Assembly: GCA_030682385.1 (NCBI GenBank)
Contig: JAUXOG010000085.1
Span: 696-64,695, forward strand
Direction: 5' to 3'
Length of the DNA stretch: 64,000 nucleotides
From: Bacteroidota bacterium
GTDB lineage: Bacteria > Bacteroidota > Ignavibacteria > UBA10030 > BY39
A program made the position numbers and the translations under genes. The notes under the pieces are model-generated. The model made no database searches, was not told where the DNA came from, and worked only from the letters and a program-made list of their open reading frames with translations. Each line of letters starts with the position of its first letter. Within the stretch, counting starts at the first letter, position 1. Below are positions 3,763-38,505 of the stretch, piece after piece.

Positions 3763-4026
3763 CTATAAGCTTGAAATATTACTCTTTTTAAGAGATTTTG
3801 AGGGTATTTCTAGATTTAAGGAAAGCACTAAATTCTTTCGGGCAGATTTTCCTAATTTTGGACTTTTTTGATTTTTGTATAACAGAACAGTTTTTTTGAG
3901 TGTCTCTAAATAAGCAGTGCAATTAGGACAATGGTCTAAATGTTTTTTGATTTCGATGCAGGTCGGAGAATTTAGGTTGGCATCTAAATTTTCACATATA
4001 TAACGATATGTTTTTTTACAAGTCAT
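3763..4026 (-). CDS. Zinc-finger (ZAS/zf-HC2) anti-sigma factor, soluble
   Basis: HLDHCPNC (HxxxCxxC) motif plus N-terminal Cys; directly downstream of an ECF sigma; no transmembrane segment. Confidence 0.85.
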   Translation of the reverse strand: MTCKKTYRYICENLDANLNSPTCIEIKKHLDHCPNCTAYLETLKKTVLLYKNQKSPKLGKSARKNLVLSLNLEIPSKSLKKSNISSL

Positions 4027-4028
4027 TT

Positions 4029-4622
4029 TTAGTGAGTTAAATATTTATTCAATTCATCACGTAAAAAAACCCGAGCACGCCGCAAACGCGATTTAACTGC
4101 GGGCACGGAGAGTTTTAAAATTTTCGCAGTTTCTTCTGCCGAGCGTCCTTCAATATCGCGCAGAACAAATACGACTCTATAGTCCTGCGGAAGTTTTAAT
4201 ATTGCCGCATCCATTTTCTCCTGTAATTCTTTATCCATTAATAATTCAGCGGGCGACGGGTCCCACGCAGCGAATTCACTTGGTTCCATTCCCTCAGCCG
4301 GTGGTTCATCATACGAAATCCACAAATCGTCTAACTTTCGTTTGCGGTGTTTCATCATACAATTGTTCGTAACAATACTGTAAAGCCAGGTCGAAAATTT
4401 TGAGTCGCCTCTAAAGCTTGAAATATTTTTATAAACGTTAATGAAAGTATCCTGCAGGGTCTGCTCAGCTTTTTCTTTGTTTCTGCACACCTTGTACGAG
4501 AAACTGTAGATCATATCTTCATAACGGCGCACAAGCTCGGTAAAAGCGCGTTCATCACCCATCCCGGCTTTTTGAATCAGCCCCAGTTCGTTGTCTTCAA
4601 TATTTAATTGTTTTGATACCAC
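4029..4622 (-). CDS. ECF RNA polymerase sigma factor
   Basis: Region 2 (AEQTLQDTF..FRGDSKFSTWLYSI) and region 4 (LPQDYRVVFVLRDIEG.S.EETAKIL..SVPAVKSRLRRAR). Probable GTG start at 4622; track start is TTG at 4661. Confidence 0.9.
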   Translation of the reverse strand: MVSKQLNIEDNELGLIQKAGMGDERAFTELVRRYEDMIYSFSYKVCRNKEKAEQTLQDTFINVYKNISSFRGDSKFSTWLYSIVTNNCMMKHRKRKLDDLWISYDEPPAEGMEPSEFAAWDPSPAELLMDKELQEKMDAAILKLPQDYRVVFVLRDIEGRSAEETAKILKLSVPAVKSRLRRARVFLRDELNKYLTH

Positions 4623-4665
4623 AATTGATTTGAATATAAGATAAGCGAATATGATTAGCAAAAGT

Positions 4666-5328
4666 TTATAACTTATTAACTCCGTGTTTTACTAATCGAG
4701 CTTGTGTTATAAAAATAACTTCCTCGGCAATGTTTGTGGCAAGGTCGGCAACTCGTTCGAGGTTATGGCTAATACGCATCAGATGTAAACAGCCCTCAAT
4801 CATTTCACATGAATCTTTCATAACAGCAATAACATCCTTCGCTGTTTTGCGATTCATATCGTCCATAATATCATCTCTATCAAGGACGGATTGTGCGAGT
4901 TTTGGATCCTGGTGTATAAAACTATCAATAGCATCGCGAAGCATATGCTGAGCAAGTTCACACATTTTAGGAAGGTTTAGCATTGGCTCTTGGACGCCGG
5001 TTTGAGCTATCGTGAGTGCCGACTCTGCAATGTTCACCGCGTGGTCGCCAATCCGTTCAAGGTCGTTATTAATTTTTTGTGCAGCAAGAATCAATCGCAA
5101 ATCTACAGCGACCGGCTGCTGTAAAGCGAGTAAGTCGATGATAGCAAAATCAATTTCTATTTCGAGCAAATTAATTCGCTTATCGCCCTCAATAATTTGT
5201 TTAGCAAGCTGCTTATCTTGTTCAAGAAATGCTTTGAGCGATGAGCCGACTGCATCCTCAACCGCGCTCGCCATTTTAATTAAATTGGTTTTTAAACTTT
5301 CTAATTCTTTTTCAAAGTGTCGCTGCAT
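4666..5328 (-). CDS. phoU: Phosphate signalling complex protein PhoU
   Basis: Two PhoU repeats (DLERIGDHAVNIAE; NLERVADLATNIAEEVIF); follows pstB. ATG 5328 has a GGAG SD; track start 5358. Confidence 0.95.
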   Translation of the reverse strand: MQRHFEKELESLKTNLIKMASAVEDAVGSSLKAFLEQDKQLAKQIIEGDKRINLLEIEIDFAIIDLLALQQPVAVDLRLILAAQKINNDLERIGDHAVNIAESALTIAQTGVQEPMLNLPKMCELAQHMLRDAIDSFIHQDPKLAQSVLDRDDIMDDMNRKTAKDVIAVMKDSCEMIEGCLHLMRISHNLERVADLATNIAEEVIFITQARLVKHGVNKL

Positions 5329-34051: not shown

Positions 34052-34240
34052 TTATATTTCGCCTCTGCGAAATTTCTGTAAAGTTTCCCATTGTTCAGGA
34101 GTTAGTGTGTTATAAATAAATTCCTGCCATTCTTCAAACCATTCGAGTCGTTGGTCTATCGGTATTTGTTTATATCTTTCTATTTGTTCGTCGGTAATGT
34201 GATAAGAATAACCGCCTTTCTTTTTTTGCTTCTCATCCAT
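34052..34240 (-). CDS. Small hypothetical protein (62 aa), partner of the nucleotidyltransferase
   Basis: Overlaps the NTase stop by 8 nt, co-oriented; LEWFEEWQEF amphipathic segment. Confidence 0.65.
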   Translation of the reverse strand: MDEKQKKKGGYSYHITDEQIERYKQIPIDQRLEWFEEWQEFIYNTLTPEQWETLQKFRRGEI

Positions 34241-34727
34241 TGTTAATCTCTTTAATTTTCTTCAATGCTTCAATATCATCCTGATCTTGCTGTCGCCCAG
34301 CTAATGATTTTAAATTTATTAAATCGTCGATGCTTATGACAGATACCGGAATCGTGTTAGAATAAACAATTTTTCTTCTTGAGTAACATTCATCGAAATC
34401 AAAAACATTTTCTATAAATATATCGATTACCTGAAATACTTTATCTTTATTAACAAACGAAAGAACTAACATATTCTTTTCGTTTCGCCATTTTTGCCTA
34501 TTATCTGGATTAACAAATTCTTCCACTTTAATAGGAACAATCGGAAACCAGCCAAGAGAATTCAGTTTATTCCAAAATGAATATATATTTTCTGGCTTAA
34601 GAGATATCAGCAAATCTATATCATAAGTCGAGCGTGGTATTCCGTGTAAACTGACTGCCATACCGCCAACAACAAGATACTTGATTTGGGACTCGTTCAG
34701 AGCTTTGAATAATTCCTGATATACCAT
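34233..34727 (-). CDS. Pol-beta-superfamily nucleotidyltransferase-like protein
   Basis: YLVVGGMAVSLHG.PRSTYDIDL (GG...DxD), VISIDDLINLK..AGRQQDQDDIEAL. Confidence 0.8.
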   Translation of the reverse strand: MVYQELFKALNESQIKYLVVGGMAVSLHGIPRSTYDIDLLISLKPENIYSFWNKLNSLGWFPIVPIKVEEFVNPDNRQKWRNEKNMLVLSFVNKDKVFQVIDIFIENVFDFDECYSRRKIVYSNTIPVSVISIDDLINLKSLAGRQQDQDDIEALKKIKEINNG

Positions 34728-34951: not shown

Positions 34952-35674
34952 TTAGTTAAACACTTTTTCATGAATTAAATTTTTAATAACTGATTCAAAC
35001 ATTTTTTTACCATCTGTATGACACAGTATTTCATCCGACGCCCGTTCGGGATGCGGCATCATACCGAGAACATTCCCAGCTTCGTTTATGATTCCCGCAA
35101 TATTGTGAAGAGCACCATTCGGATTCGCTCCGTCGGTAATTATCCCATTCACATCACTGTAACGGAATACTATTTGACGGTTTTGTTCTAATCTATTAAT
35201 CGTTTCTGCATCCGCAAAATAATTACCATCACCATGAGCAATTGGTATTTTAATTACTTCACCTTGTGTGTATTCCGAGGTGAATGGGTTAGAATTATTC
35301 TCGACCCGCAGATAAACATAATCGCAGATGAACTTGAGCGATTTATTACGCAACAGAACACCGGGCAGCAGCCCTGTTTCGCAAAGTATTTGAAAGCCGT
35401 TGCATATTCCTAATACAACTCCACCTTTGTTAGCAAACTCAATTACAGCTTTCATAATAGGTGAAAATCGGGCAATTGCACCGCATCGTAAATAATCGCC
35501 GTAAGAAAAACCGCCAGGCAAAATCAGCGCATCAACATCCGCAATCGATGTTTCTTTGTGCCAGAAAAATTGCACTTCCTGATTTAAGATATTTTTAAGT
35601 ACATAATAACAATCGTGGTCGCAGTTTGAACCAGGGAAAACCACTACGCCAAATTTTACATCCGAACGAGTCAT
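34952..35674 (-). CDS. purQ: FGAM synthase glutaminase subunit
   Basis: [50 protein letters not shown]. Confidence 0.97.
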
Positions 35675-35686
35675 TTATTAATATCT

Positions 35687-36001
35687 CTAATCCCATCGCG
35701 ATAGTGAATGCAGCAGATCTAATTTGGTTATCATAAGCACGATTATGAGAATCGAAAAAAAATATAACAGCAATTGAGCTTTCAGAATTAAATTTTTATT
35801 CTGCCCAAGGAATAAGATTACTTTAATCCGATCGAGCGAAGCAGCAACAAACAATGTTGATATGCCGATTAATAACAAAACCAAATGTGAAATGGGTTGA
35901 AAAAAATGATTCAAAAATAAAGATAAAATACCTATTAACGCATAACCAACAATTGAAAATTCAACCCAGGTTTTTTTAAAATAATAATATAATGTATCCA
36001 T
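35687..36001 (-). CDS. Hypothetical membrane protein
   Basis: 104-aa ORF with three hydrophobic helices filling the purS-purQ gap on the same strand. Confidence 0.65.
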   Translation of the reverse strand: MDTLYYYFKKTWVEFSIVGYALIGILSLFLNHFFQPISHLVLLLIGISTLFVAASLDRIKVILFLGQNKNLILKAQLLLYFFSILIIVLMITKLDLLHSLSRWD

Positions 36002-36016
36002 AAAATACCCTTCTAT

Positions 36017-36268
36017 TTAATTTATTTCTTCGATAGTAAAGGAGTAGTTTTCCATAATAACGTTCGACAGGAGCTTTTGACAAGCATCCTCGGTTTGTCG
36101 TTTAGCTTCTTCCATATTGTTGCTATTAATTTTCATTTCTATGTATTTACCTATTCTAACATCCTGAATGGAAGAAAAGTTTAAACTCTCAAGAGCATGA
36201 TAAACCGCTTTGCCTTGAGGGTCAAGAATAGATTTTTTTAAAGTGATTGTTATTTTTGCTAAAAACAA
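36017..36268 (-). CDS. purS: FGAM synthase subunit PurS
   Basis: LKKSILDPQGKAV, VRIGKYIEM, LLSNVIMENY. Confidence 0.93.
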   Translation of the reverse strand: MFLAKITITLKKSILDPQGKAVYHALESLNFSSIQDVRIGKYIEMKINSNNMEEAKRQTEDACQKLLSNVIMENYSFTIEEIN

Positions 36269-36283
36269 AATCCACCTGTAAAT

Positions 36284-37045
36284 TTACACATCGATACTCG
36301 TTTTTTCAGGATCTTCTTCAATTATTTTTTCATCTTGGAATAATTTTGGGATCGTTAAAATAGTCCATCTGATAATTCCTGAGAAAGAAAATAAAACAAA
36401 GAGGGGGAAAATTGCCGCCCCTTTGGTAGCTAAAATAATTATAACAGCCGTTAGGAATATACCGAATTTTAATGGATACTCTTTGATATTCCGTTTATTG
36501 AATTTGGGTAGAGTATCATATTTAAATGTGCTGACCATTAAAAGCGATAACCATATTATAAGAACAATAAAAACATCGGCTTTCCAACCGGCAATACCAT
36601 CGGCTTCCGAAAAATATGTTAGAACAAAAGCTACTAAGGCAATTGCTTGAGCCGGGATCGGAAGTCCTTTAAAAAAATCTTTATCGAAACCGACCAACTG
36701 GACGTTAAAGCGAGCGAGACGTATTCCACCTAAAATCAAAGGGAGCGAACTGATAATAATTCCCAATCCTTCGAGGTTGTGCAGATAAATTTTATACGCC
36801 ATAAAAGAAGGTGCTGCACCGAATGTTATCAAATCGGATAATGAATCAAACTCGACACCGAATTTGCTGGACGACTTCGTAATTCGTGCCATAATTCCAT
36901 CTAATGAATCGAATACAGCACCGAGTATGATAAGCCAAGCAGCAACTTCAAAATTTTCTTTACTCGAATGAATGATGGAGAAAAAACCGCAAAACATATT
37001 AAGGACGGTAAACAAACTTGGAACAACAGCGCGGGTAATTTTCAT
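36284..37045 (-). CDS. pssA: CDP-diacylglycerol--serine O-phosphatidyltransferase
   Basis: FDSLDGIMAR..SSKFGVEFDSLSDLITFGAAP, RLARFN, FKGLPIP; adjacent to psd. Confidence 0.92.
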   Translation of the reverse strand: MKITRAVVPSLFTVLNMFCGFFSIIHSSKENFEVAAWLIILGAVFDSLDGIMARITKSSSKFGVEFDSLSDLITFGAAPSFMAYKIYLHNLEGLGIIISSLPLILGGIRLARFNVQLVGFDKDFFKGLPIPAQAIALVAFVLTYFSEADGIAGWKADVFIVLIIWLSLLMVSTFKYDTLPKFNKRNIKEYPLKFGIFLTAVIIILATKGAAIFPLFVLFSFSGIIRWTILTIPKLFQDEKIIEEDPEKTSIDV

Positions 37046-37060
37046 TTTAAAATTTCATCC

Positions 37061-37720
37061 TTATTCACCTGTGAATTCAGCTATTACAGTTTCGCCGGCA
37101 GATACCTTTTGGTCAAGACTTACTTTAACTGTAACTTTATCTTTCGGCAGGAGCACGTCAACGCGCGAGCCGAACTTAATCATACCAAACCGCTCGCCCG
37201 TTTTGGCAGGCATTCCGATTTTCAAATCGGCTACAATTCTTCGAGCCACAGCTCCTGCAATTTGTTTAAACAAAACTTTACCATTTTTACTTTCAATGCC
37301 GATTAAGGTTCGCTCGTTTACATCGGAGGCTTTATCTTCGAATGCGACCAAATATTTGCCCGGGATGTGTTCGAAATATTGTATCGTGCCATCAACCGGG
37401 TAGCGATTCACATGGACATTTAAAGGCGACATAAAAATGCTGATAAGTACGGCATCGCTTTTTAAAAATTTATCTTCATAAATATCTTTAATTGAAATAA
37501 TTTTTCCATCGGCAGGTGATATTATCAAGTTATCTCCTGCCGGTGTAACTCGATCCGGGTCTCTAAAAAAATAGAGAGTGAATAAAATAAATGCTGAACT
37601 GAAAATAATCAGTATGTATTTTAATAAATCGATTCGAATAAAAAATGTTGAAATTAAAATCAGTGCAAAACAAATGAACGAAACTACACCGACAACATCG
37701 AGACCATATTTAGTTATCAA
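37061..37720 (-). CDS. psd: Phosphatidylserine decarboxylase proenzyme
   Basis: FFRDPDR, ISPADG, IFMSPLNVHVNR, GMIKFGSRVD self-cleavage motif. Confidence 0.94.
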   Translation of the reverse strand: MITKYGLDVVGVVSFICFALILISTFFIRIDLLKYILIIFSSAFILFTLYFFRDPDRVTPAGDNLIISPADGKIISIKDIYEDKFLKSDAVLISIFMSPLNVHVNRYPVDGTIQYFEHIPGKYLVAFEDKASDVNERTLIGIESKNGKVLFKQIAGAVARRIVADLKIGMPAKTGERFGMIKFGSRVDVLLPKDKVTVKVSLDQKVSAGETVIAEFTGE

Positions 37721-37736
37721 GAAATTCTCCTATTAT

Positions 37737-38453
37737 TCAAACTTTATGCGAAAGTCTGTCGTTTAATTCTGAAAATACTTTATAAATATTTTCATTTGAA
37801 TGATTAAAATAATCGCGCTGATATTTTCCATCTTCCGAGATATTCCAGAAGCGGCAGGTTAAAGGTGAAAGCTCGCCGCTTAGTACGATTTTATCTTCGA
37901 TATGTCCGAATTCAAGTTCAACATCAGTTAAGACCAAATTTCGCCTTTCACAAAGCGATCGCAATACAGCATTCGTTTTCGTTGCCAACCGGTTGATTGC
38001 CTTGAAATCCTCAATAGAAACCATCCCTAAAGATAGGATGTGTGTTTCGTTAATCGCTGTTTTACTTTTATCTTTGTTAAAATAACAGTATTCAAGTATC
38101 GGAAAAGTCAGAGGGTCCCCCTCTTTCAAATCGAATCTTTTGCTCAACGAAGTTGTAGCATAGTTATACACATGCACTGTCGTTTGTATCGGTTTATTTT
38201 GTTTAATGAGCAACTCGGAATCGGTCAAAGTTCTAACAAAATCAGTAGGAATTTGATATTTTTCTAAATATGCGAATAGATAAGAAGATATTTCAGCCCG
38301 GAGATTAACAAGACTTTTAGTTTTCCCACGTAGCTTTTTGATATCATGGGATTCTGAAATAAATTCCATTACCAACAAGTTAGGTTGGTCGGCAGTGTAT
38401 AGATTTTTTGTAGTGCCTTGATATATAAGTTCGCGTCCTTTTGATTTAGTCAC
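37737..38453 (-). CDS. PurC (SAICAR synthetase)-like protein with degenerate catalytic motifs
   Basis: PurC spacing recognisable (LIYQGTTKNLY, LVLTDVELEFG, LSGELSPLTCRFW) but key residues are replaced. GTG start 38453 has a GGAG SD; track start 38534 is the -35 box. Confidence 0.75.
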   Translation of the reverse strand: MTKSKGRELIYQGTTKNLYTADQPNLLVMEFISESHDIKKLRGKTKSLVNLRAEISSYLFAYLEKYQIPTDFVRTLTDSELLIKQNKPIQTTVHVYNYATTSLSKRFDLKEGDPLTFPILEYCYFNKDKSKTAINETHILSLGMVSIEDFKAINRLATKTNAVLRSLCERRNLVLTDVELEFGHIEDKIVLSGELSPLTCRFWNISEDGKYQRDYFNHSNENIYKVFSELNDRLSHKV

Positions 38454-38505
38454 TTTATCTCCATTGAGAGAGAATCTAACGATAATTATTAACGAATACG
38501 GTAGT

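Follow-up and report, generated by a model that had tools for sequence, protein, structure and literature searches.

Introduction

PurC, the synthetase of phosphoribosylaminoimidazole-succinocarboxamide (SAICAR; EC 6.3.2.6), is known in a short form, with solved structures from E. coli (2GQR/2GQS), S. pneumoniae (4FE2), G. kaustophilus (2YWV) and C. perfringens (3NUA), and in a long form (NF010568/PRK13961) exemplified by yeast Ade1 (1A48) and the M. abscessus protein (6YVQ). Here we describe a degenerate homologue of the short form, encoded at 37737-38453 on the minus strand of a 64,000-nucleotide stretch of DNA from an uncultured member of the Ignavibacteria (the whole stretch being called the window). 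Its product, the window protein, is predicted to share the fold of the canonical short PurCs, to which it is equal in length and 28-33% identical, and its gene likewise comes first in a purS-purQ operon; it differs from them by the loss of K11, E90, R94, K123, D125, D129, K177, D196, K211 and R215 and by a score below the cut-off of the purC equivalog model. The long form belongs to the same superfamily as the window protein and is presumed to be the active enzyme. From these and the following comparisons, the window protein is probably (we would put this at about three chances in four) a catalytically inactive pseudoenzyme with the PurC fold that natural selection has kept.

Additional purC-like genes have been noticed before. 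In Thermococcus and other archaea, second or truncated copies lie beside purine genes and have been suspected of being inactive or of having another function (Brown et al. 2011, PMC3261824). Those archaeal genes are C-terminally truncated or transferred, and neither a selection analysis nor a systematic loss of ligands was reported for them (PMC3261824). Our literature search found no description of a bacterial PurC pseudoenzyme, the remark of Brown et al. being the nearest to one, although such an absence is no proof. A search of the ESM Atlas returned generic PurC clusters only.

HisZ, a catalytically inactive paralogue of the histidyl-tRNA synthetase HisRS, acts as the regulatory subunit of adenosine triphosphate (ATP) phosphoribosyltransferase, where HisG is its partner. 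The likeness to the present case lies in a bacterial biosynthetic pathway that retains, as a non-catalytic partner, an inactive paralogue of an enzyme using ATP, which is the kind of role proposed below; the difference is that HisZ has a shown partner and function, whereas the window gene is dispensable in some lineages.

Fold and active site of the window protein

The gene is an open frame of 238 amino acids with a GTG start, which is common to all five members of the window's genus, and the annotated NCBI homologue P0006 is also 238 amino acids long. The window protein reaches 124.7 bits against PF01259 (SAICAR_synt; cut-off 20), and 109.3 bits against the purC equivalog TIGR00081, under the cut-off of 189.9, while the long form of the same genome scores 273. 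Its closest solved relatives are the short-form PurCs 3nua and 2ywv (E ~1e-32). An AlphaFold2 model built from 44 homologues had a mean predicted local distance difference test score (pLDDT) of 88.4 and a predicted template modelling (TM) score of 0.87, and in Foldseek it matched 4fe2, 2ywv and 3nua with TM values of 0.82-0.85. The only disordered internal stretch of the model is formed by residues 36-42 (pLDDT < 50), where the DDATAF..G..KG loops of canonical PurCs sit. According to this model, the window protein retains the SAICAR-synthetase fold.

The active site was mapped by aligning E. coli PurC (NC_000913.3) with the window protein and 20 syntenic orthologues, and residues are given in E. 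coli numbering. A preliminary description of this DNA had listed a series of replaced PurC motifs, and each of them was seen again, both against E. coli PurC and in alignments to solved PurCs. The ATP-phosphate loop GKAK reads GTTK (K11T, with K13 kept) and the KDDATAF...GKG stretch is replaced or shortened, the aspartate loop at T33 lying in this replaced part, which is also the part disordered in the model. Further along, EVVVRN has become TVHVYN (E90T, R94Y), YKxDxxxDP has become YFNKDKSKT (K123F, D125K, D129K, P130T), DFKLEFG has become DVELEFG (K177E, with D175 and E179 kept), DEISPD has become GELSPL (D191G, D196L) and DKDRFR has become QRDYFN (K211R, R215N).

The meaning of these positions is known from two enzymes. 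In the complex of E. coli PurC with adenosine diphosphate (ADP) and carboxyaminoimidazole ribonucleotide (CAIR), E179 touches ADP and R94, S100, R199 and D175 touch CAIR, while R215 is conserved or substituted by Lys (Brown et al. 2011, PMC3261824). A quantum-chemical study of human PAICS has G16-K17-T18-K19 and K131 bind ATP, E97 and D137 bridge MgB and MgC, two of the three Mg2+ ions, and K191, K228, R232 and T40 hold aspartate; the site acts by positioning substrates and Mg2+ and not via acid-base residues (PMC9376930). Residues of PAICS were equated with those of E. coli PurC by motif correspondence.

Read in this way, ligands have been lost from each group. The ATP site is left incomplete by K11T together with K123F, and the Mg2+ ligands E90, D129, E179 and D191 read T, K, E and G. 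Among the CAIR binders, R94 is replaced by Y; the window protein still has S100, D175 and R199, three residues that just 14, 29 and 18 of 45 related species, respectively, have kept. The aspartate binders K177, K211 and R215 read E, R and N. At two positions, K177E and D129K, the charge is reversed. In all, the window protein keeps five of 16 ligand residues (K13, S100, D175, E179 and R199), and because the same 16 positions are conserved in 24-25 of the 25 representatives with a full set of ligand residues, losses on this scale are not due to chance. Given the ligands gone from every group, the two reversals of charge and the near-invariance of these positions in canonical PurCs, the residues argue strongly that SAICAR synthetase activity has been lost. 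The rest of the protein has fared otherwise: canonical short PurCs have 53 positions with a conservation of 85% or more, and of these the degenerate clade keeps about 21, partly keeps 11 and loses 21, the lost ones being almost all ligand contacts, and the residues of the structural core (N95, P116, E119, N159, F180, G181, E192, S194 and P195) are kept.

An altered site need not be a dead one, and the protein might still be an enzyme, either a weak SAICAR synthetase with a rearranged site or a ligase or kinase acting on a new substrate. This we consider unlikely. Such an activity would agree with the retention of K13, S100, D175, E179, E192, S194, P195 and R199, with the strong purifying selection described below and with the non-random composition of the former cleft, where position 94 is aromatic in 34 of 45 window-like species (Y in 19, F in 13, W in 2) and where the most eroded clade of relatives has fixed R at 100 (78/80), E at 175 (79/80) and K at 199 (79/80). 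Related chemistry has also been raised for some PurC-like proteins (PMC3261824). However, the ligands of all three Mg2+ sites are gone save E179, K177E and D129K reverse charge, and the replacements vary by family, position 11 being T, D, E, G or Q, position 177 E, Q, T or M and position 191 G, S, N or D, which does not agree with a single new active site conserved throughout the clade. SAICAR-synthetase homologues do act in coformycin/pentostatin-type pathways, but ligases of the CofB/PenC type are expected with HisG-like or tailoring genes and with an ATP site. The window protein is set apart from them by its lost ATP and Mg2+ ligands and by its gene context, which consists of psd, pssA, purS, purQ and an ABC permease, that is, of housekeeping genes with no secondary-metabolite cluster.

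The long-form PurC

A canonical purC does exist elsewhere in the genome that carries the window, which is 99.7% complete. This second PF01259 gene encodes a long-form PurC of 299 amino acids (G000:C41:23909-24661), and it lies on another contig, contig 41, and not in a pur operon. It scores 271 bits against PF01259 and 421.6 against NF010568 (cut-off 251). PurE, small PurL and PurB were also found and, with the long form, they put the de novo purine pathway in place. Judging from its family scores, the long form is most likely the protein that carries out SAICAR synthesis.

The same arrangement was seen in a survey of the order, which covered 176 genomes with a completeness of 95% or more. The long form is present in nearly all of them, the exceptions being two genomes of family f5, which have a PurC-PurE fusion, then G008, and lastly G105, which gave no match. 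Short and long forms occur together in 39 of the 42 genomes of families f1 (the window's), f3, f4 and f9, while genomes of families f6, f7 and f8 nearly always have a long form and no short one.

The fusion of family f5 was observed in genome G014 (L194:901-2376, minus strand) as a protein of 491 amino acids with SAICAR_synt (214 bits) and AIRC (116 bits) domains in the order of animal PAICS. The four f5 genomes searched gave no PF01259 match other than such a fusion, and in G014 no purS follows psd-pssA within the 3.6-kb locus.

Selection on the PurC-like gene

The frame of the PurC-like gene is open, with no stop or frameshift, in 127 of 127 species loci, where it spans 218-253 codons; the fetched DNA covers 123 of these frames in full, and the other four run into the end of a contig. 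This holds although protein identity among the loci drops to ~ 30-35%. Within the window's genus, the ratio of nonsynonymous to synonymous substitution rates (dN/dS; Nei-Gojobori, NG86) is 0.15-0.25, with codon-bootstrap 95% limits of 0.09-0.44, and the neighbouring psd, pssA, purS and purQ show values of 0.05-0.2. For the most eroded clade, 19 pairs give a median of 0.086 (range 0.03-0.17). At the family level, identity is 50% for the PurC-like protein and 65-77% for its neighbours; the gene is faster-evolving, yet constrained. Furthermore, when 125 Ignavibacterial proteins are aligned, identity is 90% or higher in 22 columns. Since the frames are intact at every locus, dN/dS is far below 1 and these columns are conserved, the PurC-like gene is not a decaying pseudogene.

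The same data bear on the idea of a redundant gene on its way out, which would persist either because translation of a first cistron aids psd-pssA-purS-purQ or because its deletion has not yet happened. The higher rate of change relative to the neighbours and a dN/dS somewhat above those of pssA and purQ go in that direction, as does the series from canonical through eroded to absent copies that is found within one order (see below). On the other side, not one frameshift or stop has accumulated in 127 loci in spite of the low identity, every pair gives a dN/dS far below 1, with the lowest values in the most eroded clade, 22 columns remain conserved over 125 proteins, and a cis or translational role alone would not constrain amino acids in this way. 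A redundant gone-by enzyme is thus an improbable description, and selection on the protein itself points to a role for which the protein must be folded but need not make SAICAR.

Orthologues and the stepwise loss of ligands

The order purC-like gene, psd, pssA, purS and purQ is identical in 20 of 20 fetched relatives from five families, and in full in 111 of the 127 species-level loci, most of the others being cut by contig ends. The window gene is the syntenic orthologue of the short-form purC that heads this purC-psd-pssA-purS-purQ operon. Carriers of the degenerate gene are uncultured Ignavibacteria / Ignavibacteriales known as metagenome-assembled genomes (MAGs), and a groundwater metagenome contains the window's DNA almost complete. 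Two of the 127 loci, L101 and L102, are outliers outside the group. The former (WAPZ01000433.1), labelled Candidatus Heimdallarchaeota, has a bacterial-type short PurC with near-canonical residues and 31% identity to the window protein, and may reflect mis-binning or gene transfer.

The loss of ligands is graded among families. Families f2 and f3 reach 207-220 bits against PF01259 and keep most ligands, f4 has lost R94, and f9 has lost K177 and E179 in the three genomes read (3/3) and R199 in two of them, while most ligands are lost in family f1. A second large clade, in Ignavibacteriaceae (80 species loci, L114-L193; proteins P0161 and P0220-P0338), is more eroded still, with 56-72 bits and the same operon; the long form was present in all five of its genomes tested. 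In families f6, f7 and f8 the PurC-like gene is absent and the operon begins at psd, with psd-pssA-purS-purQ kept. At the opposite end, and outside the Ignavibacteria, stand five MAGs of Fibrobacterota-Chlorobiota-Bacteroidota (FCB) type (L085, L087, L090, L092 and L096; match 4001-4700 in each), one of them labelled Candidatus Electryonea clarkiae, in which the same five-gene operon carries a PurC that keeps 15-16 of 16 ligands. One of these five lacks the long form and four have both short and long PurC apparently intact.

As a separate observation, the most eroded clade also has its own residue, L, at position 94, and looks like a settled new state and not like ongoing erosion.

In a FastTree phylogeny the window clade adjoins the canonical FCB sequences, and the ligand scores descend along the ladder of the tree as 13, 10, 8, 6-7 and then 5 or fewer; Shimodaira-Hasegawa-like support is 0.78-0.99 at most nodes and 0.25-0.4 at three. 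From these results the simplest history would be the following. The FCB-lineage operon purC-psd-pssA-purS-purQ at first bore a working short-form SAICAR synthetase. The Ignavibacteria also have a long-form PurC, which likely took over the chemistry. The operonic copy would then have lost, step by step, its ligands for ATP, for the three Mg2+ ions, for the phosphate of CAIR and for aspartate, while its fold, reading frame and place as first gene were retained through the erosion. In this order of events, which we infer, coexistence with the long form came before the decay of the active site within the Ignavibacteria.

The preliminary description had spoken of a maintained, non-catalytic or neofunctionalised paralogue. 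Maintenance is borne out by the intact frames and by dN/dS among orthologues, and the lack of catalysis is supported as far as residues can tell, but the gene did not arise by recent duplication of the purC that works in this genome: it is the operonic short form, and the chemistry is most likely done by the long form, which belongs to another subfamily.

A wider collection of 192 short-form PurC-like sequences, from an exhaustive search with the window protein and from other searches, includes 26 that keep all 13 ligand positions first scored. The sample is biased to relatives of the degenerate query and to fast-evolving clusters; this bias notwithstanding, it shows that PurCs eroded in sequence are common in metagenomes.

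Among the proteins P0047-P0192, many metagenomic cluster representatives of short PurC-like sequences lack most ligands, and the tree places them outside the Ignavibacterial clade. One such degenerate cluster comes from candidate division KSB1.

Conserved helices and a possible retained role

The best-conserved parts of the protein lie outside the former active cleft, in a helix at 45-64 (..EISSYLFEYLE..) and in a long helix at 147-171 (..INRxASKxNAVLRSLC[ED]RR..), where R155, K159, N161, A162, R170 and R171, which belong to the 22 columns of at least 90% identity, are invariant or close to it. The catalytically complete PurCs that head the operon in the FCB MAGs carry this helix signature too, and the PurCs of E. 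coli and of the cyanobacterium Nodosilinea lack it. The LC[ED]RR motif was considered as the mark of a new function and dropped, as it is shared with canonical operonic relatives and is an older signature of the lineage. Since the signature predates the erosion, it hints that what has been retained is most likely a role that is older and does not involve catalysis. Candidate roles would be a protein-protein contact, through self-association or with another protein of the purine pathway, or the sensing of a ligand.

A more specific proposal can be made tentatively. The operonic short PurC may have had a second, non-catalytic job before its catalytic loss, for example with the invariant basic R155/K159/R170/R171 helix helping to assemble or regulate the formylglycinamidine ribonucleotide (FGAM) synthetase (PurS/PurQ/PurL) or a purinosome-like complex, and only that job would have remained under selection once the long form supplied the chemistry. 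We regard this version as possible but rather doubtful in its details.

Operon context and neighbouring genes

Downstream of the PurC-like gene and on the same strand follow, with gaps of 12-16 nucleotides, psd, pssA, purS, an open reading frame (ORF) of 104 amino acids and purQ. The phosphatidylserine decarboxylase gene psd (37061-37720, minus strand; PF02666 174.8 bits; NF003678 249.1, cut-off 225) begins 16 nucleotides past the stop of the PurC-like gene. It is followed on that strand by pssA, the gene for the cytidine diphosphate-diacylglycerol-serine O-phosphatidyltransferase (36284-37045; PF01066 65.8 bits; TIGR00473 136.1, cut-off 107), by purS, for the small subunit of FGAM synthetase (36017-36268; PF02700 105.6 bits), and, after the 104-amino-acid ORF, by purQ, for its glutaminase subunit (34952-35674; PF13507 151.4 bits). 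Hence the gene does lead psd-pssA-purS-purQ as was first described, except that the description did not mention the ORF between purS and purQ.

This hydrophobic ORF (35687-36001, minus strand; flanking gaps of 12-15 nucleotides) has no Pfam or NCBIfam match. In tblastn searches it was found at L035-L038 and L042, its carriers being the remaining four members of the window's genus and, in a second genus, the single genome G009; it was absent from the other families, where purQ directly follows purS. Beyond purQ, a 164-amino-acid ORF with likeness to DUF6036/DUF2204 nucleotidyltransferases (34233-34727, minus strand) was observed between purQ and sucD-ndk-NUDIX-namZ.

As for expression signals, the intact full-length frame is preceded, as the preliminary description had stated, by a Shine-Dalgarno-like GGAG, read from the letters at 38459-38462 (minus strand), 5 nucleotides before the GTG. 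The TTGACA promoter that it had also named is present as a sigma-70-like match, TTGACA-17-TAATAT with a TG element, at 38534-38506 (minus strand), which is a consensus match only, at 10 of 12 positions. It is weak evidence, because the scanned region has 27 promoter-like sites where shuffled sequence leads one to expect 19.3. The PurC-like gene may plausibly be transcribed together with psd and pssA, an arrangement that is conserved.

A link between purine and phospholipid synthesis had been suggested as well, and a regulator coupling purine synthesis to that of phosphatidylserine and phosphatidylethanolamine would suit a gene that stands 16 nucleotides upstream of psd in a tight operon with pssA, purS and purQ, an order that recurs in more than 110 species loci. 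It would also suit the more basic character of the degenerate copies, whose median isoelectric point is 8.35 as compared with 5.5 in canonical PurCs. However, psd-pssA-purS-purQ stays together without the gene in families f6, f7 and f8, and the same operon carries a complete canonical PurC in the FCB MAGs, which means that the gene order predates the degeneration and is independent of it. The shift in isoelectric point is modest and probably due in part to the loss of acidic catalytic residues. Gene-order comparisons found no link between the window protein and lipid synthesis, the suggested link is left unsupported, and a coupling regulator seems to us very improbable. For the same reasons of size and probable cause, nucleic-acid or membrane binding was not adopted as an explanation of the shift in isoelectric point.

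Discussion

Three properties of a pseudoenzyme were found together for the window protein: homology to an active enzyme whose ligands it has lost, purifying selection on an intact frame, and an active counterpart, the activity of the latter being taken from its family scores.

Several observations nevertheless weigh against a pseudoenzyme kept by selection. The gene has been lost from families f6, f7 and f8, so its role is dispensable or replaceable there, and the series of canonical, eroded and absent copies also resembles the slow loss of a redundant gene. With K13, S100, D175, E179 and R199 surviving, some binding of nucleotide or ribose is possible, and the conservation of the two helices may be structural and not that of an interaction surface. 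Finally, in genome G008 of family f1, which is 97% complete, Pfam and protein searches showed a degenerate copy (L044:219-926) without a long form. G008 is the only near-complete genome of this family with no long form detected, and either its assembly has a gap or it relies on its degenerate PurC; we treat it as an assembly gap, which leaves a loose end.

The occurrence of such proteins has a practical side. NCBI and JGI name most of them phosphoribosylaminoimidazole-succinocarboxamide synthase, and the more eroded Ignavibacteriaceae family amounts to 534 clusters at 90% identity. A dead copy could thus lead a metabolic reconstruction to assign PurC activity to the genome that carries it.

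For the family itself, PurC has been treated as an enzyme of one function, whereas here its fold appears to be kept without its ligands in well over a hundred species, which would mean that it does something besides making SAICAR. The lineages described, with a canonical short form alone, a canonical form beside the long one, partly eroded and heavily eroded copies and outright loss, form a natural experiment in which this second role, and the passage from enzyme to pseudoenzyme, could be studied.

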